Origin: Parcubacteria group bacterium ADurb.Bin326
Lineage (GTDB): Bacteria > Patescibacteriota > Patescibacteriia > 2-01-FULL-39-33
Length of the DNA stretch: 64,000 nucleotides
Direction: 5' to 3'
Assembly: GCA_002068915.1 (NCBI GenBank)
Contig: MWBE01000017.1
Location: forward strand, 3,818-67,817
Every line of letters begins with the position of its first letter. Positions within the stretch are counted from its first letter, which is position 1. Under the pieces are notes generated by a model that did no database searches, had not been told where the DNA came from, and saw only the letters and a list, made by a program, of their open reading frames with translations. The position numbers and the translations under genes were made by a program. This document shows, piece by piece, positions 14,671 through 53,491 of the stretch.

Positions 14671-15218
14671 CACTTATCTCTGACTTTCATCAAAGGGTGG
14701 ACTATATCATTACCTTTTCCAGTCTATTGGATTAAGGTATCAGGCGCTTCGGCCCGCCTTTAACGGCGGAACTACTCCCCAAAGGGATAGTCTCTGAACC
14801 TTCCCCTGAAAGGGGCTTGGCTGCGGATTACCATATCCTTGCGGACTTAGGCTTCCCGCAATTCACCTGATTATCATTCCAAAATTTCTTTCGGAAGCTG
14901 CGTGGAGCCGGAATGTAATTCTCTATGACAATTAGCACATACTAACAAGCATTTATTAATCTCTTGAATGACTTTATCCCAAGATCTTGAAATCCTTTTG
15001 AGGAGACGCCAAAATCTTTTTTATTGCCATCCAAATGATGGAATTCTAATGCTTGCACGCATTTACTGTAGCCACAGATTTCACACTTGCCGCCTTTATA
15101 TTCCAAGGCCTTATCCCTTACGGCTTTACGCCTCTTGGACACTGCCTCAATCAAATATTTACGACGGTCGGCATATTTTCTATTATCTTTAGTCATAACT
15201 TTTGATAACAGACGGTTC
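14671..15218 (-). mobile_element. group I self-splicing intron (~548 nt) in the tRNA-Asn anticodon loop, carrying an HNH endonuclease ORF
   Basis: On the minus strand the classic core elements are read directly: P AATTGCGGGAAG (14852-14863), Q AATCCGCAGCC (14819-14829), R GTTCAGAGACTA (14788-14799), S GATATAGTCC (14699-14708). P3 ATCAGG/CCTGAT. Candidate IGS GCAGC pairs with exon GCUGU with a terminal U-G. Omega-G at 14671. Confidence 0.8.
14942..15196 (-). CDS. intron-encoded HNH-family homing endonuclease (CEICGY ... EFHHLDGNKKD)
   Basis: The ORF track shows 14942..15238, but its first 7 codons lie in the tRNA 5-prime exon. The likely start is the internal Met at 15196 (MTKDNRKY...). C-x2-C plus HH..N HNH motif. 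Confidence 0.55.
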   Translation of the reverse strand: MTKDNRKYADRRKYLIEAVSKRRKAVRDKALEYKGGKCEICGYSKCVQALEFHHLDGNKKDFGVSSKGFQDLGIKSFKRLINAC

Positions 15219-15338
15219 ACAGCCGGTTGCTCTACCATTGAGCTATCGCGGAACTCTAGTGATTTTTATGTACTTTAATGACGTTAAATATCTTAACAAA
15301 TTTTTCTGGCTAAGTCAAGCCAAATTTTCTGTGGAAAA

Positions 15339-19753: not shown

Positions 19754-21715
19754 TCAAATGGATGGCTTTATTGGCGGTTGAGGTGGCAATACCGGACCAG
19801 ATTGATCAATTTCTCGAGTCGAATTTACTGTTTGATTTAAATCATGCGAAACAAATCCCTCATCTCCAACCAATTTCTTAGCTTGCTCGTACCATTCTAA
19901 TTTATATTCCTCTTCAGTAATACCCTCTGGGTTTACAGTCTCCTGTTGAGGTTTTCTCAATTTACCGTCAAAGCCGGTTATGTCTTGAGAGAGGATGTCA
20001 GAAAGACTAGCTGGCTTAATTTTAAGAGCCTCTTCTTTGACAACGGGTTCGTCCAGCATTACCATTTTGGCCGGCTTAACATCAGCGTCTTTATTGCGCT
20101 TCTCGGCTTTTATTTGTTTAAAGCAATCATCGCAATAAACCGGCTTGCTCGGATCGGGATCAAAGCCAATTTTAAATTCCTGACCGCAAGCCGAACATTT
20201 AGCATCAAACTTGGGTTTGTCTTTTTCTTCTTTTTTCTTGTCTTTTTTATCCGACTTGCCGGGCGCTACAGTCGATTGATTTTTGGCCAATCTTCCCTTA
20301 CCCAAATCAGATAAGCTAATAGTCGGCCCACCTTTTAGAGTTTGTCGCGGAATTATTTCTCCTGCCCCTAAATCACGGCCGGCAATAGGAGTTCTCTCCG
20401 AACTTACATTGATCCTTGAACCTACATCAACCGCGCTCCAACGGTTAATCTTATCCTCAACAACGGCCCGAGGATTAGCGCAACGCTCACGCGAAACAGC
20501 AATAACCTTATCTCTATTGTTGGTACGATAATTATCAAAAAGCGGTGGCAAAGTGGCAGCCGAAAAAGGATCGGAAGAAACTCCGTCAATCATTAATTTT
20601 AAATAAATAGCAAAGGCCGGCAGATTAACTAAATCCTCTTCAGTAAAAAATGGAGTAAACTCTCGTACCAACCCTTCAGCATCAGCCGCCCCGACACGAA
20701 AACAAACAATTGTTCCGACGTTACCAAAAACGGCAGCAGAAACCACTTCCGGCAACTGCTCAATGTATTGATGCGCTACTATCAAATTAAGTCTGTACTT
20801 TCTGGCTTCTGATAAAATGTTAGCAAAACTTTCGGTAGCAAAATTCTGAAATTCATCGACATAAAGATAAAAGTCGTTGCGTTCATGCTCGGGAATATCG
20901 ACGCGGCTCATGGCTGACAAATATAATTTAGTCACAATCATCGAGCCAAGCAATTGCATAGTATCTTCTCCGATACGTCCCTTAGACAAATTGAGAATGA
21001 GGATTTTTTTCTTGTCCATTATTTCTCTCAGATCGATAGTTGACTTGACTTGTCCGACGATATTTCTGATCAGAAAGTTAGACAAGAATTGTCCGACTTT
21101 ATTCTGGATCGGAGAGATAACCTCCTGCAAAGTTTTTTCGTTCCACTTATCGTACTCGTTAACCCAAAAAGATCGCACTACCGGATCCTTGATTTTTGCC
21201 ACCACCTTGTCTCGATAATCCTTCTCTACCAAAATTCTCATAATGCCAAGAAGGGTTGAGCCTTGGTAATCAAGCAATGACAAAATAGCGTTGCGCAAAA
21301 TGTATTCCAAGCGAGGCCCCCAGGAATCAGCCCACAACTTTTTAAAAACGGAAATCAAGCCGGAGGCGATGAAGCTTTTAGAATTTTCATCAACAGCTTC
21401 AAGAACGTTGAAGGCGATCGGAAATTCCGTATCAGCCGGATTGATATAAACCACATCATTAATGCGATGAGGAGGAATAAAATCCAAAATCTTATCAGCA
21501 GTATCGCCGTGCGGATCAATATAACAACACCCCTCGCCGTTTAAGATATCGGAAATAATAAGGTTTTCTAGCAAGGTAGTTTTTCCCATGCCGGTCTTAC
21601 CGATGATATACATGTGGCGTCGACGATCATCGCGCTTGATGCCAAAACTACGCTTGGCATTGCGATAGTTAGTCTCGCCAAAAATAGTGATGTCGTTGTT
21701 ATTTGGTCCTGTCAT
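19754..21715 (-). CDS. type IV secretion coupling-protein-like ATPase (VirD4/TraD/TrwB family) with a C-terminal Lys-rich tail and CxxC-CxxC zinc ribbon
   Basis: 653-aa ORF with Walker A YIIGKTGMGKTT, Walker B YLYVDEFQNF and an AHQ motif typical of T4CP/FtsK-HerA ATPases. C-terminal CSACGQ...YCDDC. Confidence 0.6.
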   Translation of the reverse strand: MTGPNNNDITIFGETNYRNAKRSFGIKRDDRRRHMYIIGKTGMGKTTLLENLIISDILNGEGCCYIDPHGDTADKILDFIPPHRINDVVYINPADTEFPIAFNVLEAVDENSKSFIASGLISVFKKLWADSWGPRLEYILRNAILSLLDYQGSTLLGIMRILVEKDYRDKVVAKIKDPVVRSFWVNEYDKWNEKTLQEVISPIQNKVGQFLSNFLIRNIVGQVKSTIDLREIMDKKKILILNLSKGRIGEDTMQLLGSMIVTKLYLSAMSRVDIPEHERNDFYLYVDEFQNFATESFANILSEARKYRLNLIVAHQYIEQLPEVVSAAVFGNVGTIVCFRVGAADAEGLVREFTPFFTEEDLVNLPAFAIYLKLMIDGVSSDPFSAATLPPLFDNYRTNNRDKVIAVSRERCANPRAVVEDKINRWSAVDVGSRINVSSERTPIAGRDLGAGEIIPRQTLKGGPTISLSDLGKGRLAKNQSTVAPGKSDKKDKKKEEKDKPKFDAKCSACGQEFKIGFDPDPSKPVYCDDCFKQIKAEKRNKDADVKPAKMVMLDEPVVKEEALKIKPASLSDILSQDITGFDGKLRKPQQETVNPEGITEEEYKLEWYEQAKKLVGDEGFVSHDLNQTVNSTREIDQSGPVLPPQPPIKPSI

Positions 21716-21724
21716 AATTTTTTA

Positions 21725-23434
21725 TTAAACGAAGGGAAGATTGGGAGGTGGCGCACCTTTATGAGTTGGTGGCTGTTGATCGTAACTGTCCACATTAGGA
21801 ATTGGCGGCTGAACCACAACACTTTCAGTGGCAGACCTAGGATTGCCAGAAATTATTCTGGCTCCCTCAAATCCAGCAGAGGGAATATTGGGTTGTACAT
21901 TTTGGTTGCCAGCAACCGGCTCTTGTCCAAAAACCGACTGGCCCGGAAAAATTGGTTGAACCGGAACAGTCCTAATTACTTCCCGTTCCTCCTTGGGAGC
22001 TGCCGGAGCTGCTCTTTGGTCGTAGGGCAACCTGGTTGGCGGCGGAGCTTTCTTACTGCCAATCTTACTTACTTCGGCAGCCTTGACCGAGATAACCGGG
22101 AAGTGCCAAACGGACGCTAGTTCTTCTGGAGACATCCATAAAATATCACCGGTTTTTTCTCCATAGAAATTGCTTCTTTTACAAAAATATCGCAAAATAC
22201 TGTTTTGTCTTTTTTCAACCCTTTTATCAACAAAAATATAGTCGGCCGCGGTCTTGCTAATCTTGCCTGGCTTAAATCCGTTAGCGTCAGAAGTATTAAA
22301 TTGCTGAATTGCTCCGATTACTCCGACAACTCCCCTGCCTTTAGCAAAAATTTCTTTGCGACCCAAATAAATCATCCTGAATTTTACTTTGAAATTCTGC
22401 TTGGAAATCTTATTTTCTACTCTTTCTAAAACACTGCGTTCTCCAGGAGTAATCTTAAACATTCTCCACTCGTCTTCTTTCTTTTTTTCAGTTGTTCCAG
22501 TCAACGAAATTCCAGTCAACTGTTCCATTATTCCGCCAACAAAACCCATGCCGGAATCAACCGGTTTAGTTACCAAAGAAGTCGGATCAAACTTAGAGGC
22601 AGCCGGATCCTTGTATTCCTTGCCAATTAATTGAGCCACTATCTTTTTTGCCGGCTCACCCCAGCCCGGAGGTTGTGGAGTAATGACTAACTGAATCCAA
22701 ATTTGCTCTCCAGGATTAAGTCGGCTTAAAATTTCCAAAACTCCGGCCATGGGGTCAATGAAGTTACCGGAAAGCGAGTGTTCAAATTCCGGATAGGTAC
22801 GAATCGGATAGGGGTAAGGTTTAACAAAAACAAATTCACAGCCCCAGAGCTTATAAACCTTATTGGGAAACTTTAATTTTGAAAAAGGAATCGGCTTTCC
22901 TTCCGAATCAATATCGTCAGAATCAAACTCCGTGTAATCAGTCACCTCGGTTATTTCCGCTTCGGGATACTGGGAATAAACCGCCGCCTCAACTAAATCC
23001 CTAAAATGACTAGGCACTCTAACCAAAAAACGTATATGCCCCTCTAAGCTGACTATCTCAAAAGAAAAACTTTCCGTAGTCTTTCCGTCCCAATACTTAT
23101 CTATCAAATTGGGTCCGGAATAGGCGCCGGCTAAAGCGGCAAAAATATTCTCTACAGCTTTCGGTGTCTGCTCGTTATTTTTGGGTATATCTATCGCCAA
23201 AAGATTGAATTTCCACTTACCGGCAAACTTGCCCTGGCGACCATCAAGCCAAATATCGTAAAGGCCTTTGGTAAAAATTATTATAAACAAAATCCAACCA
23301 CCACCAAAAAATATCTGCAAACTAATGTCAACAGGATTTTGATTGGCAAAAACCATGAAAGAATAATACAATTCTTCCCAATTAAAATTGCCTAGGGCGC
23401 TATTTATTATATATCCTATCAAATCGCCTTCCAT
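21725..23434 (-). CDS. hypothetical membrane protein (single N-terminal TM, Pro/Gln-rich C-terminus), adjacent to the VirD4-like ATPase
   Basis: 569-aa ORF with a hydrophobic segment near residues 40-65 and a low-complexity proline-rich tail. No family recognised. Confidence 0.4.
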   Translation of the reverse strand: MEGDLIGYIINSALGNFNWEELYYSFMVFANQNPVDISLQIFFGGGWILFIIIFTKGLYDIWLDGRQGKFAGKWKFNLLAIDIPKNNEQTPKAVENIFAALAGAYSGPNLIDKYWDGKTTESFSFEIVSLEGHIRFLVRVPSHFRDLVEAAVYSQYPEAEITEVTDYTEFDSDDIDSEGKPIPFSKLKFPNKVYKLWGCEFVFVKPYPYPIRTYPEFEHSLSGNFIDPMAGVLEILSRLNPGEQIWIQLVITPQPPGWGEPAKKIVAQLIGKEYKDPAASKFDPTSLVTKPVDSGMGFVGGIMEQLTGISLTGTTEKKKEDEWRMFKITPGERSVLERVENKISKQNFKVKFRMIYLGRKEIFAKGRGVVGVIGAIQQFNTSDANGFKPGKISKTAADYIFVDKRVEKRQNSILRYFCKRSNFYGEKTGDILWMSPEELASVWHFPVISVKAAEVSKIGSKKAPPPTRLPYDQRAAPAAPKEEREVIRTVPVQPIFPGQSVFGQEPVAGNQNVQPNIPSAGFEGARIISGNPRSATESVVVQPPIPNVDSYDQQPPTHKGAPPPNLPFV

Positions 23435-23559: not shown

Positions 23560-24762
23560 TTAGATATTATCAGCTTGAGCTGCCTGATCTATTGCTTCTT
23601 CCATAACAGCCTCTGTTATAGAATTTTCGTTGATAGCGTACTTGCCTTTTTCGTTTTTCTTAACCTTCTTGTGATTCATAAGAGACAAGTATACGGTCGA
23701 GCGCTTAACATTTCTACGCTCTAAAACCTTTTCAATAATCTCGTCTTTGGTTAATGGTCCGTTTTCTCTGATTATCTCCTCGATTACATCGGCCACATTT
23801 CCCGGCTTATAGCCCCACTCCTTCAAAGCATAAATGCCGCGTCCCACCAAAACATACTTTTCGTCAAGTATTAATTCATTATGTACTGTCGGAGCGTAAG
23901 CAACTTTGCCATCAAAAGCATTACCATTAATTGAATCGGCGATTTCTGTAAAATGCATCGGGCGACCTGATTTTTTAAGGGTAAGATAAATCTTATCATT
24001 AATTTTCTTAGGCTTAACGATGCCCCAAGAGATTAATCCCCAATTATTGAAGATATCTTGGCGAATCTTTCTAGAAGCGCGCAAATAGCTTTCAAGAATT
24101 TTATTGACGTCAGTCTCGTCAGCTTCCAACATGGTAGTCAAGAAAAGGATTTTCTCTTTATTGTCATTAAAGAATGCGGATGACTTAAATTGTGAAAGCA
24201 ACTGATCAAGGCTAATGGGATCGCCGTTTTGTTCGATGACGTTAACCATTTCGGTTATAACCTTCTTAAGGAAATCAACATCGGAAACACCTAATCTCCA
24301 AAGGTTGTTAAACTCCTTGTCCTGATTGATCTTATTGATATTGTCGGTAAAGATATGTTCAGCCAAAAACAGCAAAGAATTTTCGCTTTCTGAATGGGCA
24401 TTAAGATAGTTGAGCACATTCTCCAAAAAGAAAGACTCTTCCATCACTCCGCCATATTGCTCTAAAAGTTGGACAACCAAAGTTTCAGCCTCTCTAATCT
24501 CTTCCTTCGATTCTCTTAATTCTTTGAGCTTCTTGATGGAAAGATTTTCTATTTGCCTGACGCGTTCTCTGGTAATGCCATATTTCTGGCCTATTTCCTC
24601 TAGGGTATACCTCTTGTCAACGCCTAAACCAAATCTTTTGGTGATAATATCCTTTTCTTTTTCAGAAAGATTATCAAAAAGATAGCCCAGGGTGTCAACC
24701 GGATTAAAGGATGACAAACCATCTTTAAATTTGTTTTTTCTTACTTGATCCAAGATAGACAT
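23560..24762 (-). CDS. DNA-binding protein with an N-terminal sigma-70 region-4-like HTH (no recognisable sigma region 2)
   Basis: 400-aa ORF. Residues ~35-85 (DIITKRFGLGVDKRYTLEEIGQKYGITRERVRQIENLSIKKLK) resemble region 4.2 of sigma factors; the remaining ~300 aa are not sigma-like. Confidence 0.5.
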   Translation of the reverse strand: MSILDQVRKNKFKDGLSSFNPVDTLGYLFDNLSEKEKDIITKRFGLGVDKRYTLEEIGQKYGITRERVRQIENLSIKKLKELRESKEEIREAETLVVQLLEQYGGVMEESFFLENVLNYLNAHSESENSLLFLAEHIFTDNINKINQDKEFNNLWRLGVSDVDFLKKVITEMVNVIEQNGDPISLDQLLSQFKSSAFFNDNKEKILFLTTMLEADETDVNKILESYLRASRKIRQDIFNNWGLISWGIVKPKKINDKIYLTLKKSGRPMHFTEIADSINGNAFDGKVAYAPTVHNELILDEKYVLVGRGIYALKEWGYKPGNVADVIEEIIRENGPLTKDEIIEKVLERRNVKRSTVYLSLMNHKKVKKNEKGKYAINENSITEAVMEEAIDQAAQADNI

Positions 24763-24990
24763 AAGCTTATTTTAAAGCCTAAAACGCAAAACAGTGAAAT
24801 TCTTTTGACATTTTTTTGGCTAAAATTAAATACTTTTTATTGAAATATGATTAATATGACTTAATTATATCAAAAAAAATCCTTTTTGTCAATGGCAACA
24901 CCTAGAACCAATATATTTCACTGTTTTAACAATAAAAAAACAAGTCCAAGCAAAGGCCTGAACCCGTTGCTTATATTTTTTTACTTTCAA

Positions 24991-26092: not shown

Positions 26093-28090
26093 TTATTCCA
26101 CAATTCCGCTCACCTTTCCCAAAATCGGATCATCAAAGGCGGTGGTTATCGCTTTTACTGTTTTGGAAATATCGGCCCCGGTTTCGATGTCTTTACCCGA
26201 CAAACGCACCTCGGGTATAAGCACTAACACTCTGCCACTATCCGATTCTTTAGGCGTAATACTAATATTAAAGTTTAAATAAGCTCCGTCAGCCCTCTTA
26301 GACAGGCGAGAGATGGTCCAAGATAATTTTCTGGTTTTAGAATTATAGACGACATCTCCGGTGTCATGGTCTTCTTTATTGTCCCAACTGACACCCGCCG
26401 GCAAAGTGGCGCTTACTTCAATATTGGAAATATCATGAATGTTGTTGCCTAATTTCAAAGAAACATTATAAGAAGATGCTTGCCCCACCTGAGGCTTGAT
26501 TGGTCCCGCGCCCAAAGCAATATTATCCTCGTTATAGTACCTCGCCCCCGCCTCCAAACTTAAATCAGAATTAACGGAGTTAGTGATTGTTTTTCCAGAG
26601 ACAGACGACTCGTTGCCGGCAGCAGTTGTCTTGGCTTCTAAGTAACTTTCTACGCTTAACTTTCCTATGTCCTCTCCCCTCAGAGAATCATAATCTCTGA
26701 CACGGATCTGCCAAGAAATTGACCCTTCTTCGCCCGGCCTTAAACTTAACAATTGCGATACTTGCTTTCCTGTCCAAATTAACGAATTGCCGGATTTCTT
26801 ACCTAACGCAGAATCTTTGAGGCTATCCCAATCTAAAATATCAGAATCAAGATGAGCAGTAAGTTCGATGTTTTTTAAATCTTCGTGTCCGGTATTTTTA
26901 AATGAAGCGGTATAAATTAACAATTCTCCAAAACCTACCGGCTGGTCTTCTCCAGAACCATTAATAACTAAAGTTAGTTTCAATTGATCTTTGACGACAT
27001 TGGTTATGGCCGATTGTTCAGCCTGTAAAATCCAATCACTTGATTTTTTAAGATTAACCTTAAACCTTATCTCCTGGTTGCCGGATTCAGAAATACCGGA
27101 AAAATTACCGCTTATTGTAATTTTTTTGTCGGTGGAAGTGCTCCCCTCAGTCGAAGTGGCAAGATCATTTATCTCCCAAGTTCCATTAGAACCCGATTTG
27201 GCTTGCAAACTAGAGGAGGAAAAAACAAATCCTTGCGGATAATCAGCGACCACTTCAATGTTTTCTAAAGTTTCTAAGCCCACATTTCTTAAAGTGACAA
27301 CATATTCCCCATTCTGATTTGATAATAACTTGTCAGGACCGGAAACATTAAGGCTAATAACTGAGACATTAACGCCTAAATCTAGAGAAACTTTTTGCTG
27401 AAACTCTGAATTAATATTCTCCGGCTTGAAGCTCAAAATGCCTGAGAGATTATGAACCGAGCCAAGTGAAGCTACTATTTTTGCCGTAAGCTCAATCTTG
27501 ACTGTCTCGCCTACTCGCAAAACTCCCATGCTCCACGCATTTTTCTTCTCACCGGAAGCCTCCGGAGTTGATGAGACATATTGAAAGTCGTCAGGATACT
27601 TCAAATCAATATTGAGGTCGTAAAGATTAACTTTTTCGTTATTGGTAATTATTATGGTGTAAACCGATTCTTGTCCCGAAACAACAGACAAAGGAGGATC
27701 AATTTTAAAAATCACACGATCATTAGTAAAAGAATCCCCCGAGAGATTAGAAAAGACCAAAAATCCTATTAGTGAAGCAAAAAAGACGACCGCAAAAAAA
27801 GCAGTGGCCCAATAAAGCAGTTTTTGCCACAAAGGCATCTCTGAGTGCTCTAATTTGGTCATGTCTGGTATTTCTCCATCAGTATCAGTATAAACTTCGG
27901 CTAATTCATGCTGTATCTCTTTCGATCGAGACCCAATCTTTTTAAAAGAAGAAATAAAAGACTTTTTGCCACTCTTATTTTTCATCACTTGAGCTAGACC
28001 GTCCTGCATTGTAGAAATATTTTCCCTTAATTCGTCAATTGGCGGTTCGCTTATCTCATTTGAAGTTGGTAAAATAGTTTTTTTGGGCAT
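26093..28090 (-). CDS. membrane-anchored surface protein with repeated beta-rich (DUF11/CARDB-like) domains
   Basis: 665-aa ORF with one TM near residue 90 and a long extracytoplasmic Ser/Thr/Asn-rich region with repeated motifs. Assignment is loose. Confidence 0.35.
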   Translation of the reverse strand: MPKKTILPTSNEISEPPIDELRENISTMQDGLAQVMKNKSGKKSFISSFKKIGSRSKEIQHELAEVYTDTDGEIPDMTKLEHSEMPLWQKLLYWATAFFAVVFFASLIGFLVFSNLSGDSFTNDRVIFKIDPPLSVVSGQESVYTIIITNNEKVNLYDLNIDLKYPDDFQYVSSTPEASGEKKNAWSMGVLRVGETVKIELTAKIVASLGSVHNLSGILSFKPENINSEFQQKVSLDLGVNVSVISLNVSGPDKLLSNQNGEYVVTLRNVGLETLENIEVVADYPQGFVFSSSSLQAKSGSNGTWEINDLATSTEGSTSTDKKITISGNFSGISESGNQEIRFKVNLKKSSDWILQAEQSAITNVVKDQLKLTLVINGSGEDQPVGFGELLIYTASFKNTGHEDLKNIELTAHLDSDILDWDSLKDSALGKKSGNSLIWTGKQVSQLLSLRPGEEGSISWQIRVRDYDSLRGEDIGKLSVESYLEAKTTAAGNESSVSGKTITNSVNSDLSLEAGARYYNEDNIALGAGPIKPQVGQASSYNVSLKLGNNIHDISNIEVSATLPAGVSWDNKEDHDTGDVVYNSKTRKLSWTISRLSKRADGAYLNFNISITPKESDSGRVLVLIPEVRLSGKDIETGADISKTVKAITTAFDDPILGKVSGIVE

Positions 28091-28101
28091 AATCCTATTA
28101 T

Positions 28102-31071
28102 TTATTTCAACAAGAAACTAACACCGAAATATTTATCCGAATCGGCTTGAGTAGAAAATACGGCCTTATTGTCATAAAATTCAACATCTTCCGGATAGTT
28201 TATTGCGGGACTAAAGTTCTGCGGATAAACTACCTCAGAAGTTATTTGATCGCGACTGCGACCCGATTGTTTTTGAAGCAAGACGCCATAGCTGGCAACC
28301 TCCGAAGAAAACATGGAGGCGACAGAGTTTACAAGGCCTTTGGGGCTATCTGATCTTCTGACTTTAAACGGTAGCTTATAAACCAGAAGCATCTTCTGCG
28401 TTTCTCCCGGACCGACTACTGACCAGTTAGAAAACACTGTTTTACCATTCTCCTGATAAATCTTAGTTCCTGTTTTTTCATCCTGAATTCCAAAATCCTC
28501 GTTTATTATTTCTTTCTTGTATTCCAGATCTTCTTCAAGTTTTTTGAAATCACCCGCGCCAAAAGGCTTGAATCCCGAAACAGAAATTAACTCGCTACCC
28601 AACGGAACATAGACACGGATATAGGAATTATTAGCTTGATTGGTAAAAAAATCATCAGTTGGTCCAAAATGACTACGCTCAATCAATACATGATCAATTA
28701 TTGATCCGTCTGACTGAATTTCGGCTCGATGCCAAATCTCTTGCCTGATAACGTTATCTGTTTTGCCTCCTCCCAAGTTAGTAGTGATCACGCTCAGATA
28801 ATCATTGTTTGATCCTTGGTCCTTCAATTGTCCAGCGTAACCGTTATCCAAAACAAACTGCTGTAATTGCTGATCAGCAAAATACATCACCACATCTTTT
28901 TCTCTTAAGCCATTGCCAATCGCCTCTGACAATGGCAAGACGCTTTCCGGCTCCACCGTCAAAAGCTTTTCCATTATCTTGGGAGCGAGTTCCGCCAAAA
29001 TCTTTTTTGGTTTAGTCTTGTCTTTGGCTTCCAGCTCTATGCTTTTCTGTAATTCATATTCATAATTTTCAATACTGATAGTCTTGCCATAATTTTCTAA
29101 TTTGATTGGTCCGGTAACTTTTAACAATTCCGTCAGCCAATCTGAATTGATAGCAAAAACTCCATCAACCGTAGGTCCGCCGGACTTCTCATAAAACCAT
29201 TTAATATTGGCTGCTGAGGTTGGAAAATCAGGCCACCAGTTTGAATCTTGGAATTCCCAACGACTGGCAACTAAAGACAAAGCCTTGGGCGGGGCAAGGC
29301 GTTCATTGAATCCTGCCCTGACATCATAAGTGCCGCCTTCGGGCAAAGTTATTTTTTCAATCTTTCCATTTTTAAAATCAACTAAAGCAAAACTACCCAT
29401 AAAGCCTCCGGTGGCCCGCATTTCGTTATCGTTTTGAAAGACGAACAGATAACGCTTAAGTTCTCTTTCGCCCAAAACTTTGACGGCGAATTCGGAAGCA
29501 TTCCTCATTTCTTTCATGCTCTCGATAGCCAAAGGCAGACTTTCCTTCAACTTAACAAAACGCTCACGACTATCATCAGGAATGTGGCTGGATGAAACCT
29601 TTTCTGCGTTTTCCTGCGCCAAAATCATTTCCTCAAGCGCCGAGTCCAATTCCAATTTAAAATTGTTTATCTTACTCGAAAGCGATAAATTTGACTCCCT
29701 ATCAGAAAGAATTTTGATCCCCTTAATTAAATACTCGCCAGCCGAAGAAAGTCGCTCCCCCATTTCAATGATATTTTTGCCTGACTTGAAAGTATTTTGA
29801 GCCGGAGCCACTTCCGCCAAAACCGTCACAAAAGACTTAATATCTTCCAATTGATCTTTAGCTGAATTAAAATTCTTATTGGCCTTGGCTAGATTGGCGC
29901 TTGCTTCATCCAAACTAAACGCCTTGAGATCGTCTCCGGCTTGGGACATACTCCTGACGGCTTGTTCAGCCTCGCCCAAAACTTTACCCTTGATTGCGCC
30001 AACTTGATCCACATAAGACATCGCCTTGACTGAAAAAACCAGGGCGAGCATTATCCCTAAGGAAATTGACGCGATAGTCTTCATTTTAACGTTGGGTTTT
30101 TTGAACTCGAAATTACTGAAGAAATCAAGATTGGGCAACCAATCATGCTTGGGCCAAGGGGCTGACGGTTTTTGAATATTAAGCACTACTCCTCGCCTGG
30201 TAAAATTATTCTCCAAGTATTTTTCTCTGACTTCCTTGATGCTGGGCTTGCTATTTCCTTGTTCGACGCCCTGCTTGCCTAATTTGTTTAAGGACTGATT
30301 CTCGGATAACAAATCAGAAATAGTCGGCTCATAGGTTGCGGTTGTGGCTGTAAATTTTTGCCTGAATTTCTCCAAAGAGACGTCGTCTTCTTTCTTATCA
30401 ACAACATCGATTTGGGGCTTACTATCAAGCCAAACCGTCTCATCCTTGACAAAGGGCTTGGATAAATACCATTTAGCCAAAAGAAATGAAACTCTTGCCA
30501 GCTGATAAAGTTTAACTGTTTGTCGCCACAAAAAAACAAGAAAATTAATAAAAAATATCTGTTCCAGTAATTCCTTGTTTTGTTTAGAGATAAGTTGATG
30601 CGGCAATTCCCGATTTATCGCGGGACCGGTAGAAAATAAATCTTCAAAATAATTTTTGACTCTCTTTAGGGCGATAACGATTTCGCTCTTATCAAGCTCC
30701 CAAAAAGAAAAAAATCCTATTTTTTCCAGCCATTCCCCTGCCGGCAACTGCGCATAGGATATTTCTTTGACTCTGGGAGCGACAAATTCTTTTTCCGGAT
30801 GCTTAGACTTAGAAAGATCAAGCAAAAATGGAGAGTGGTACACATCTAGCGGATGGTCAGCGATGCTGATTTTAAAAGTCTTTTTATCTTTTTGGTCTCC
30901 AATCAATTCCAAGGGTTCTGCCTTATTTTCTAAAGAGTTATCAAACAAAACATCGGCCGCGTCACGGCCTAACTTAGACTTTTTTAGAGTTGTGGCAGAC
31001 TTTTGAACGGCGTTTTTTTTCTTTGTCGTCGCCTTCGGTTTGCCAACAGATGTTTTTCTCTTAATTGCCAC
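28102..31071 (-). CDS. DUF4012 domain-containing membrane protein (cell-envelope associated)
   Basis: 989-aa ORF with a Lys-rich N-terminus, one TM, and a segment YLFVFQNDNEMRATGGFMGSFALVDFKNGKI that resembles the DUF4012 core. Confidence 0.5.
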   Translation of the reverse strand: MAIKRKTSVGKPKATTKKKNAVQKSATTLKKSKLGRDAADVLFDNSLENKAEPLELIGDQKDKKTFKISIADHPLDVYHSPFLLDLSKSKHPEKEFVAPRVKEISYAQLPAGEWLEKIGFFSFWELDKSEIVIALKRVKNYFEDLFSTGPAINRELPHQLISKQNKELLEQIFFINFLVFLWRQTVKLYQLARVSFLLAKWYLSKPFVKDETVWLDSKPQIDVVDKKEDDVSLEKFRQKFTATTATYEPTISDLLSENQSLNKLGKQGVEQGNSKPSIKEVREKYLENNFTRRGVVLNIQKPSAPWPKHDWLPNLDFFSNFEFKKPNVKMKTIASISLGIMLALVFSVKAMSYVDQVGAIKGKVLGEAEQAVRSMSQAGDDLKAFSLDEASANLAKANKNFNSAKDQLEDIKSFVTVLAEVAPAQNTFKSGKNIIEMGERLSSAGEYLIKGIKILSDRESNLSLSSKINNFKLELDSALEEMILAQENAEKVSSSHIPDDSRERFVKLKESLPLAIESMKEMRNASEFAVKVLGERELKRYLFVFQNDNEMRATGGFMGSFALVDFKNGKIEKITLPEGGTYDVRAGFNERLAPPKALSLVASRWEFQDSNWWPDFPTSAANIKWFYEKSGGPTVDGVFAINSDWLTELLKVTGPIKLENYGKTISIENYEYELQKSIELEAKDKTKPKKILAELAPKIMEKLLTVEPESVLPLSEAIGNGLREKDVVMYFADQQLQQFVLDNGYAGQLKDQGSNNDYLSVITTNLGGGKTDNVIRQEIWHRAEIQSDGSIIDHVLIERSHFGPTDDFFTNQANNSYIRVYVPLGSELISVSGFKPFGAGDFKKLEEDLEYKKEIINEDFGIQDEKTGTKIYQENGKTVFSNWSVVGPGETQKMLLVYKLPFKVRRSDSPKGLVNSVASMFSSEVASYGVLLQKQSGRSRDQITSEVVYPQNFSPAINYPEDVEFYDNKAVFSTQADSDKYFGVSFLLK

Positions 31072-36256: not shown

Positions 36257-36329
36257 GCGCCTATAGCTCAGTCGGTAGAGCAACAGCCTTTTAAGCTGAT
36301 GGTCCCAGGTTCGAGTCCTGGTGGGCGCA
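36257..36329 (+). tRNA. tRNA-Lys (anticodon UUU)
   Basis: GCGCCTA-TA-GCTC-AGTCGGTA-GAGC-A-ACAGC-CTTTTAA-GCTGA-TGGTC-CCAGG-TTCGAGT-CCTGG-TGGGCGC-A. Canonical cloverleaf, anticodon loop CUUUUAA. Confidence 0.9.
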
Positions 36330-51988: not shown

Positions 51989-53491
51989 ATGAAGAAACTT
52001 AGTGTTGTATTGATGATGGTTTTTGTGGTTTTCGGCTGCCTGGTGCTTACCGGCTGTAACAAGCCTGGCGACAACAACGGCGAGAACCCGCCGGCCGTGG
52101 TCAACCCTGAAGGCGAAACGCCCGAGGGCGAAGACGGGCCGACGATCCGCCCGGTTGTGGAAGGTGAACCTGAGACCCCTGCGGTCGAGGGTGAACCGGA
52201 AGTGCCTGCCGAGGGCGAGCCCGAAGTGCCGACGGAACAGTCCGGCAGTATCGTTATCACCGGAGTCCTTTTCAAGGGACTGCCGGCAACCAAGGCGCTG
52301 AGCGCGGACGAGAACGGACTGACAGCTGAAGAGCTGAGTCAGGCGTTCCTCGAAATCGCTGCGGCGACCGATGGACTGGAGTTGGTGCTTGACGGTGACG
52401 GCGAGAATGATTACAAACGCTCCTGCACTGTGCAGAGCGACGGGTCATTCTTCTTGCGCCTGGCAAGTGTTCTGCCCGGCGATTACAAGCTGGAGCTGAA
52501 CACCATGTCCAGCACCACCGGCATCAACGGCTGGGGCAAATCCGAAGTCGATGTGAAAATCGAAGCCGGCAAGGTCACCCAGGTGACCGTCGCCCTCGAG
52601 CGGATGGAAACGTTCGCAATCCTCGGATACTTCAGCGATGAACTCGCGGAAGATGAGGATTGGGGTTCGTTTGAAGCCTTCCTAGTCGACACCGCGGGAA
52701 ACAATTATACCGCGGTCCTCGCCAAAAACGATGCCGACGAATGGGTGATCAACGGGTACAACCTGCCTGTCTCGGCCATCATTGGGGCCTTGAAGATCAC
52801 GGGCGACGACATCGAAACCATGATGTTCGCCGTCGACACGACGAGCACGGCTTTCGAGAACGGCTACTCGTTATTCGACGTGATCGACAACGAAGCCATG
52901 CTCGCCCTCGTATCCGACACTGGAGACCTTGAAGTCACCGTCCCCCCGATTGATCTGGGTGAAGGTGAAGACGAAGAGGGCGAAGTTGAGAGTGAGGACG
53001 AAACCGAAGGCGAAGGCGAAACTGAAGGCGAAGGAGAAGTTGAAGATGATAACTCCCTTCCCCTGGTCGCCGGCAAAGCGACGGTCGGGCTGATCATCGA
53101 AACCGATGGCTCAGTGACGATGCTCGCCGACGCCAACGAGGGCTTCAGCCTGCCCCTGTCCTTCTACGGCCTCCCCGCTTCGATTGCCTCGCTCGGCGTC
53201 GAGGTTTACTACCTGGATGACGCCCACGACCCCGACGGTGCTTGGGAAGATCGCCAAGTCGTGGCTTGCTCCGGACTGCCGTTCGAGGCAACCGTGAACA
53301 TCTTCGATTCCCCGGTCTGGCGTTTCCAAGTGGTTGCCAACTCCGTGGACATGTGGGCCGGAAACTATGCCAACTCCGTGAAGTTCCATGTCGTGGTCAA
53401 GTACCGCGATGCTGAGAATTGGACAACACTGAGTCAGTCCGATGACGGCAGTGGCAACATGGCGTACCAGGTCGATACCCGGACGCTGTAA
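51989..53491 (+). CDS. GC-rich acidic lipoprotein (500 aa; lipobox LVLTGC; Glu/Pro-rich linker repeats; Asp/Glu-rich segments)
   Basis: [19 protein letters not shown]. Signal peptide plus Cys lipobox. Composition strongly GC-rich compared with neighbours. No catalytic motif recognised. Confidence 0.55.
   Translation: MKKLSVVLMMVFVVFGCLVLTGCNKPGDNNGENPPAVVNPEGETPEGEDGPTIRPVVEGEPETPAVEGEPEVPAEGEPEVPTEQSGSIVITGVLFKGLPATKALSADENGLTAEELSQAFLEIAAATDGLELVLDGDGENDYKRSCTVQSDGSFFLRLASVLPGDYKLELNTMSSTTGINGWGKSEVDVKIEAGKVTQVTVALERMETFAILGYFSDELAEDEDWGSFEAFLVDTAGNNYTAVLAKNDADEWVINGYNLPVSAIIGALKITGDDIETMMFAVDTTSTAFENGYSLFDVIDNEAMLALVSDTGDLEVTVPPIDLGEGEDEEGEVESEDETEGEGETEGEGEVEDDNSLPLVAGKATVGLIIETDGSVTMLADANEGFSLPLSFYGLPASIASLGVEVYYLDDAHDPDGAWEDRQVVACSGLPFEATVNIFDSPVWRFQVVANSVDMWAGNYANSVKFHVVVKYRDAENWTTLSQSDDGSGNMAYQVDTRTL

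Follow-up and report, generated by a model that had tools for sequence, protein, structure and literature searches.

The subject of this study is a pair of genes in a 64,000-nucleotide stretch of contig MWBE01000017.1 from Parcubacteria group bacterium ADurb.Bin326, a member of the Patescibacteria; this whole stretch is called the window below. Two co-oriented open reading frames (ORFs) lie on the minus strand with a spacer of 9 nt between them. The upstream ORF encodes a protein of 569 aa, which is 100% identical to BWY53_00215 of the same bacterium, and the downstream one encodes an ATPase of 653 aa; both are present as described in the first-pass annotation, which had been made from the sequence alone. 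At least 843 homologues were found for the former and more than 8000 for the latter; therefore, the two are not a chance pair of ORFs. Their features are as follows.

21725..23434, minus strand: DUF8128 (PF26449) protein, 569 aa, the membrane-anchored N-terminal half
23258..23326, minus strand: single transmembrane (TM) helix of DUF8128, residues ~37-59, the only place where the Kyte-Doolittle value is >=1.6
22085..23215, minus strand: cytoplasmic globular domain of DUF8128, residues ~74-450, with a predicted fold like that of the VirB4 N-terminal domain
22025..22054, minus strand: KKAPPPTRLP motif, residues 461-470, which closes the globular domain and is the fission/fusion junction
21728..22072, minus strand: Pro-rich low-complexity tail, residues 455-569, at the end of which the motif is repeated as GAPPPNLPFV (21728-21757)
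19754..21715, minus strand: ATPase assigned to the VirB4/VirD4 class, with a C-terminal zinc ribbon, 653 aa, the motor half
20426..21715, minus strand: ATPase core, residues 1-430, a nucleotide-binding domain of the RecA type that carries an all-alpha insertion (~125 residues, helices 110-234)
21578-21601, minus strand: Walker A motif GKTGMGKT, residues 39-46
20846-20869, minus strand: Walker B motif YLYVDEFQ, with D287/E288
20768-20776, minus strand: AHQ motif, residues 314-316
20111..20212, minus strand: CxxC-x17-CxxC treble-clef zinc ribbon, residues 502-535, beside a Lys-rich segment

The Walker A, Walker B and AHQ motifs are of the FtsK/HerA type, as had been noted, and all of them are invariant among 41 homologues from many lineages of Patescibacteria, the cores of which are 55-83% identical. 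Walker A begins after the first 38 residues. The Pfam families TrwB_AAD_bind (1.1e-10), T4SS-DNA_transf and TraG-D_C matched above their cutoffs, DUF87 was also among the matches, and the NCBIfam models for VirD4-like CD1115 and TraD matched far under their equivalog cutoffs. In a sequence search of the PDB, TrwB and DotL were the best and the sole meaningful matches. The models of VirB4 gave 19.8 bits against a cutoff of 643.1 (TIGR00929) and an E value of 0.069 (AAA_10), and there was no match to CagE_TrbE_VirB (PF03135).

In the fold comparison, the AF2 (AlphaFold2) model of the ATPase scored 22.3 with the C-domain of DptH, 21.0 with that of VirB4 (4ag5), 20.3 with TrwB and 20.0 with DotL, followed by Cag-beta (16.6), HerA (15.8), FtsK (11.3) and TcpA (11.2). 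The protein is therefore placed in the VirB4/VirD4/DptH branch and not with FtsK; in other words, within the FtsK/HerA superfamily its sequence and predicted fold put it on the side of VirB4/VirD4, the branch of type IV secretion. The FtsK-type motor with a gamma DNA-recognition domain, by which an FtsK/SpoIIIE translocase is recognized, was not found in it. The class proposed in the first-pass annotation, a coupling-protein-like ATPase, is thus borne out by the Pfam families of type IV coupling proteins (T4CPs), by the PDB matches and by fold scores above that of FtsK. Neither of the two outcomes named there as contrary was obtained: HerA and FtsK are not the best matches, and the 569-aa protein does not belong to a well-characterised unrelated family.

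The AF2 model predicts eight helices (residues 110-234) between the strands 88-91 and 238-242, and TrwB has an all-alpha domain of its own that resembles this predicted insertion. The ATPase has no TM segment; a single Kyte-Doolittle window barely at the threshold (1.62, residues 324-342) is inside the core. The zinc ribbon scored 42.1 bits with Pfam zf_Tbcl_2 (PF23477; 7e-11; cutoff 27) and 42.8 with TIGR04272 (cutoff 36). Its cysteine pairs, CSAC at 507 and CDDC at 528, are preceded by a Lys-rich stretch; C507, C510, C528 and C531 are invariant among the 41 homologues, and the predicted local distance difference test (pLDDT) value of the ribbon is ~84. The Lys-rich tail and the ribbon had been recognized earlier, but the ribbon does not end the protein, as had been stated: ~120 poorly conserved residues follow it to the C-terminus. 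Homologues are named in NCBI either 'type IV secretion system DNA-binding domain-containing' or 'CxxC-x17-CxxC domain-containing'.

It should be mentioned that PADLOC gave a partial mad8 match (5.2e-18) and a weak DndH match for the ATPase. Nevertheless, an anti-phage defence ATPase of the DptH/HerA/MADS type is highly improbable: there is no other MADS or Dnd gene nearby, DUF8128 has no PADLOC match, and nearly universal, strongly conserved genes with a fixed synteny are not typical of defence islands. This candidate was rejected on its context and on the PADLOC results.

The Pfam scan of the 569-aa protein gave no match, and the model PF26449 was not in the Pfam copy used. In precomputed annotation, PF26449 is found on the identical protein and on nearly all listed homologues, one of which bears the UniRef name 'DUF8128 domain-containing'. 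The TM helix is flanked by no K/R and five D/E residues on the N side and by five K/R residues on the C side. By the positive-inside rule, an N-out, C-in topology is predicted, which would place the DUF8128 domain in the cytoplasm, together with the TM-less ATPase. Among 48 DUF8128 homologues P466, L469 and P470 are invariant, and the C-terminal PPxNLP is nearly so. The tail of 115 residues contains 19% Pro and 8% Gln, and pLDDT is below 50 from residue 451. The single TM helix and the Pro-rich tail of the first description were thus confirmed, although the tail is only mildly Gln-rich.

When the DUF8128 model was compared by Foldseek, nine TrwK chains were ranked at the top, with E values from 5e-5 to 5e-3. 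The top 60 fold matches included no RecA-like ATPase fold, nor did they include the VirB4 C-domain entry 4ag5, although the library holds 4ag5 and the ATPase model matched it. Because of this, the match is considered to be with the N-terminal domain of VirB4, and the cytoplasmic domain of DUF8128 seems to have the fold of the N-terminal half of VirB4. The earlier view of a mere proline-rich membrane partner is accordingly replaced by that of a conserved family, DUF8128, with such a predicted fold.

The relation between the two proteins is seen from gene order and from fused proteins. The search with the DUF8128 profile gave 3252 cluster representatives. A single-sequence scan of a genome collection returned 3 loci only, a profile scan of metagenomes gave 80 loci that were used, and the gene-order sample consisted of 85 non-redundant DUF8128 loci that are 34-81% identical to the query; most of them are on metagenomic contigs, the taxonomy of which is not reliable. 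Downstream sequence of 1.5 kb or more was available in 69 of the loci, and in 50 of these 69 the ATPase gene comes directly after the DUF8128 gene in the same orientation; in three more it is nearby. The same order of DUF8128 and ATPase was recovered when the search was begun from ATPase homologues.

In one locus (L050, 14024-16588) both are found in a single protein of 854 aa. Its residues 19-407 align with residues 32-470 of DUF8128 (E 1e-22, 22% identity), and its residues 412-831 align with residues 11-423 of the ATPase (E 3e-125, 45% identity). A PPPxxMP motif (residues 398-407) ends four residues ahead of the start of the ATPase alignment. Such fusions of PF26449 and PF10412, ~850 aa long and without a zinc ribbon, are abundant in Patescibacteria and make up at least 120 clusters (all of the best 120 matches, 72-85% identity). 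The fused paralogue shares with the pair both domains, the TM helix, the junction motif and a housekeeping context, and differs from it in being a single gene, in the missing ribbon, and in its neighbours, a ~164-aa protein upstream and dnaX downstream. Since the gene pair is collinear with the fused proteins, it is probably one VirB4-shaped ATPase split in two genes. The fission point, as located from the alignments, is the interdomain linker right after the conserved PPPxxLP motif.

Some further observations concern these relatives. The ~164-aa protein has no Pfam family and is always ahead of the fused paralogue (L050, 16590-17084, minus strand; L091, 9506-9997; L092, 9505-9999); it may be a further partner. 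In the same three loci dnaX and a Peptidase_C39_2 gene follow. A stand-alone DUF8128 subfamily without an adjacent zinc-ribbon ATPase is seen in L050 (7905-9338), in L092 (19695-21110) and in the 16 loci of the gene-order sample in which no ATPase gene is adjacent; in two cases it lies 6-7 kb from the fused paralogue, and a GT4 glycosyltransferase often follows. A DUF8128 homologue of 40% identity is on a 3.3-kb contig binned as 'Candidatus Nanoarchaeia archaeon' (DATJQC010000064.1), which is either a mis-binned Patescibacteria contig or a source of a homologue from DPANN archaea.

Sequence homologues of both halves in one polypeptide were also found in phages, namely phrog_5156, Bacillus phage G gp156, Geobacillus phage PK2.1 gp44 and phage JL gp150. 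In phrog_5156 (824 positions), DUF8128 matches profile positions 158-285 and the ATPase positions 387-804, in the same order as in the gene pair; this unannotated phage family thus gains a family relationship. Matches to both halves were also obtained with phage G gp156, a protein of 825 aa (tblastn, E 2e-49; DUF8128 profile, 3e-19). These proteins differ from the pair in that they are fused and phage-encoded, and have neither a zinc ribbon nor, at the annotated N-termini, a TM helix. The neighbours of gp156 are gp155, a VirB4-C-domain-like ATPase (P-loop_TraG, AAA_10), and gp153, which is TrbL/VirB6-like. In this region of phage G (L089, 84952-99111), gp153, gp155 and gp156 form a small T4SS-like gene set (T4SS, type IV secretion system), and gp146, 'replication initiation by nicking', is nearby. 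Gp150 of the SPO1-like phage JL is flanked by a partition protein and a nicking replication initiator.

The fused-protein profile found no match on viral contigs. With the ATPase profile, nine loci (L097-L105) were obtained from IMG/VR contigs classed as viral, with frames of ~360-740 aa that are 30-61% identical. None of the nine has a match to phage G gp155 or gp153, to the nickase or the partition protein of phage JL, to Agrobacterium tumefaciens VirB4 or to the ~164-aa protein. One of these contigs (L102) carries two tandem copies of the ATPase relative.

Among known systems, VirB4 (TrwK of R388) shares the two-domain plan of an N-terminal membrane-associated domain and a C-terminal ATPase. 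In real T4SSs, the N-terminal domain of VirB4 fastens the ATPase to the membrane complex. The present pair differs from VirB4 in having no match to the VirB4 profile, a TM helix of its own and a zinc ribbon. Furthermore, it is not next to pilin genes, no VirB3, VirB6 or VirB8-type gene was seen among the scanned ORFs of the window or in the related loci that were inspected, and no VirB4-like ORF was found in 84 related loci. A parallel in layout is the TrsD plus TrsE/VirB4 arrangement of monoderm MPF-FATA systems and of Patescibacteria, although the published profiles did not pick up DUF8128 as TrsD. According to Table S3 of PMC12102498, the true VirB4 of Patescibacteria covers 52-60% of the VirB4 profile and adjoins TrsD, which is like the VirB4 N-terminus; with this short VirB4 beside TrsD, splitting has a precedent in these bacteria. 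EccE (with EccC) of type VII secretion is also counted among the closest known systems.

The T4CPs (TrwB, VirD4, TraD, DotL) share with the ATPase the nucleotide-binding domain with Walker A/B, the matches to T4CP profiles and the all-alpha insertion. Most of them have an N-terminal TM domain in the same polypeptide, whereas here the anchor is on DUF8128; known T4CPs have no VirB4-like N-terminal domain, which DUF8128 carries according to its predicted fold. The ATPase has a C-terminal zinc ribbon where T4CPs have a TraM-binding tail, and, unlike T4CPs, it has no relaxase or T4SS neighbours and is a chromosomal gene in nearly all genomes of the phylum. In short, the locus lacks the marks of a classical T4CP (a TM segment of its own and a T4SS or relaxase context) as well as those of VirB4 (its sequence and a VirB3/6/8 context), and partly resembles both.

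The contents of the window bear on a classical conjugative coupling protein or a remnant of an integrated mobile element. This identity might be expected from the T4CP names of the Pfam and NCBIfam matches and from the annotation of homologues in NCBI as T4SS DNA-binding proteins. Pfam scans were carried out on 45 window ORFs, that is, most ORFs of at least 110 aa other than shadows of longer ORFs, and all window ORFs were additionally scanned with hidden Markov model profiles of DUF8128 and the ATPase. These scans showed no VirB4, VirB6 or relaxase family, nor was a VirB3, pilin or integrase family found in the 45 ORFs; a few ORFs of ~136-199 aa and all those below 110 aa are outside the Pfam scan, and small VirB2/VirB3-like proteins could hide among them. 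Within that scope the ATPase is an 'orphan', as had been proposed, with no relaxase, integrase or other T4SS gene around it. The base composition over the locus is flat, without a compositional island in 19.7-24.8 kb, the core is 55-83% identical over the phylum, and conserved housekeeping genes lie on the flanks. Those assigned by Pfam in the window are DnaG, RpoD, DnaB, TGT, MetRS and the ribosomal proteins L10 and L7/L12, together with the dcw genes MraZ, MraW, FtsI and MurE-like; glycosyltransferases, rubrerythrin and desulfoferrodoxin are also present. Relaxases are found in 103 of 3035 Patescibacteria genomes only (PMC12102498). A conjugative origin is thus hardly credible, and the earlier doubt about classical conjugation is upheld by the missing relaxase, the housekeeping context and the presence of the gene in nearly all genomes of the phylum.

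From these results, the explanation that we favour, and that we hold to be rather probable, is that the two genes encode, in two halves, a single translocation ATPase of the T4SS class (VirB4/VirD4) that is anchored in the membrane and presumably hexameric. The pair is conserved over the phylum and the unit belongs to the core genome of Patescibacteria. DUF8128 would supply the N-out TM anchor and a cytoplasmic module like the VirB4 N-domain, and the 653-aa protein would supply the motor, with the T4CP-like nucleotide-binding domain, the all-alpha insertion and the Lys-rich zinc ribbon. Like the N-terminal domain of VirB4 in the R388 machine, DUF8128 might keep the ATPase ring on the cytoplasmic side of the membrane, and after gene fission the PPPxxLP peptide probably still docks the two halves. 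The zinc ribbon and a helix-turn-helix (HTH) protein encoded ahead of the pair would engage nucleic acid, and ATP hydrolysis would recruit or move the substrate. That DUF8128 and the ATPase bind each other at the membrane is very likely. The chances that the machine moves or recruits nucleic acid seem nearly even, and its service to a separately encoded T4SS of Patescibacteria, rather than action on its own, is a tentative proposal. Points for the T4SS link are the fold relations, the neighbourhood in phage G and the parallel split of TrsD and VirB4.

Several points weigh against this explanation of the pair as a split T4SS-class ATPase. No adjacent ATPase is present in 16 of the 69 DUF8128 loci, and ATPase-only relatives without a DUF8128 match occur on viral contigs. 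The VirB4-like fold of DUF8128 is that of a predicted structure. In hhalign against A. tumefaciens VirB4 the probabilities were <=7%, with 0.2% for the 48-sequence DUF8128 profile, the Pfam scans of 48 DUF8128 members showed no VirB4, TraC or TrsD family, and the PDB profile search with DUF8128 gave zero matches. A sequence-level link between DUF8128 and VirB4 was rejected on these hhalign, Pfam and PDB profile results; the relation is a structural one. The zinc ribbon most likely binds nucleic acid, a role assumed from its composition. As for the T4SS link, T4CP homologues are near virB4 in only 148 of 5713 cases in Patescibacteria, and in Ca. Southlakia epibionticum the T4CP homologue is dispensable and the T4SS is essential (PMC12102498). 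Wang et al. found no coupling protein in the T4SS cluster of Southlakia (PMC10633639). If both paralogues are present there, one could have made up for the loss of the other, which would account for the single disruption that was tolerated in transposon sequencing.

Another possibility is a stand-alone DNA translocase unrelated to T4SS. Such a membrane-tethered motor would pull DNA, either in uptake together with ComEC or type IV pili, or, FtsK-like, in chromosome clearance at division. Nearly every Patescibacteria genome carries about two 'orphan' T4CP homologues (PMC12102498, PMC10633639, PMC12857230), and VirD4-like genes away from virB4 were described as possibly 'exapted for other functions' (PMC12102498). 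T4CP homologues are found in 2918 of 3035 genomes and VirB4 in 2417 (PMC12102498), which might speak for a role apart from T4SS, as do the core chromosomal context, distant from T4SS genes, the Lys-rich zinc ribbon and the HTH protein. The layout of anchor and Pro-rich linker is reminiscent of FtsK, and PilB and PilC are near the unit in one locus (L003). However, if a genome has two copies of the gene and every gene is recovered equally well, 96% versus 80% is what is expected, and the prevalence therefore shows no independence from VirB4; the fused and split forms described above fit the published number of about two T4CP homologues per genome (PMC12102498). In addition, FtsK is mentioned in a paper on the Saccharibacteria strain TM7x, and comEC is dispensable in Southlakia. 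We therefore regard a stand-alone translocase as unlikely. Its FtsK-like version, a split translocase with anchor and Pro-rich linker, was rejected as the main explanation on the fold scores.

A bolder view may be mentioned as a speculation of low probability: the pair might represent a third lineage of T4SS-class ATPases, with a VirB4-like N-terminal domain and a coupling-protein-like motor, that bridges VirB4 and VirD4 and works as a T4SS-independent, phylum-wide motor for nucleic-acid import or handling, guided by the sigma-region-4/HARE-HTH protein described below. Patescibacteria account for much of the diversity of bacteria, are host-dependent and do not synthesize nucleotides. If this view were true, the motor could serve, for example, in acquiring host DNA or RNA for nucleotide scavenging.

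Returning to the favoured split ATPase, orphan T4CP-like ATPases paired or fused with a VirB4-N-domain-like membrane module would become a defined complex of two to three proteins. Such an architecture would be a link bearing on the divergence of VirB4 and VirD4, and the Pfam family DUF8128 gains a predicted fold. No paper mentioning DUF8128 was found in the literature, nor was a description found of its pairing or fusion, the VirB4-like fold, the gene fission, the sigma-region-4/HARE-HTH gene or the phage relatives.

The unit extends upstream of the pair, with the following features.

23560..24762, minus strand: sigma-region-4/HARE-HTH protein, 400 aa, the conserved first gene of the unit
24864..24892, minus strand: promoter-like site, TTGACA, a 17-nt spacer and TATAAT, 12/12 matches, with extended TG
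24939-24968, minus strand: terminator-like hairpin before the promoter-like site

The N-terminal part of the 400-aa protein (residues ~22-86) matches Sigma70_r4 (Pfam, 2.4e-15) and region 4 of SigA in the PDB (1.8e-11), and its C-terminal part has winged helices like those of HARE-HTH/DUF3320. The sigma-region-4 gene is immediately upstream of DUF8128 in 49 of the 72 loci with room for it, and the gap to DUF8128 is merely 3-28 nt in two of them (L096 and L095). No promoter- or terminator-like site is listed on the minus strand between the three genes. The genes for the sigma-region-4/HARE-HTH protein, DUF8128 and the ATPase can thus be read, from their sequence and order, as one conserved three-gene operon. 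The first-pass annotation placed the pair between the oxidative-stress genes and the sigma-like HTH gene; the latter is part of the conserved unit and not a boundary.

Of the loci, 48 reach 5 kb or more upstream; 26 of these encode SecD/SecF on the same strand ahead of the unit, and 12 have SecA further away. This synteny may be an inherited gene order or a functional link to export. The latter would suit a protein-handling ATPase for envelope biogenesis or secretion, which recruits or unfolds proteins at the membrane. Many T4CPs recruit protein effectors. It was also suggested by Wang et al. that the T4SS of Southlakia may export proteins (PMC10633639). However, the Sec genes may be where they are by inheritance, and SecD, SecF and SecA are not in this window. 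Nucleic acid is suggested instead by the zinc ribbon, the Lys-rich tail and the first gene with its DNA-binding product, and nickase and partition genes are found beside the phage relatives. A protein-handling role is accordingly considered improbable.

In four loci (L004, L005, L095 and L096), SecD, with an inserted peptidyl-prolyl isomerase domain, and SecF are directly ahead of the unit. In the window, a DUF4012 protein (989 aa) and a DUF11/CLIPPER-repeat protein (665 aa), both very large and of envelope type, are encoded at 26093-31071 on the minus strand; their genes are syntenic with the unit in close relatives, for example in L006.

The window contains some other features apart from the unit. 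At 14678-14954 on the minus strand, the full-length Rfam model RF00028 (101 bits) identifies a group I catalytic intron. It is abutted by an ORF of 98 aa (14942-15238, minus strand) with an HNH-like CxxC...HH motif, which is possibly a homing endonuclease. No rRNA match was found in the window, and ARAGORN detected tRNA-Lys at 36257-36329 only. The window is GC-rich in one stretch only (54.5% versus about 41%), which is not rRNA and contains an ORF of 500 aa (51989-53491, plus strand). The protein has no Pfam match; it shows a lipoprotein-like signal peptide (LTGC) and long acidic repeats rich in Glu, Gly and Pro.

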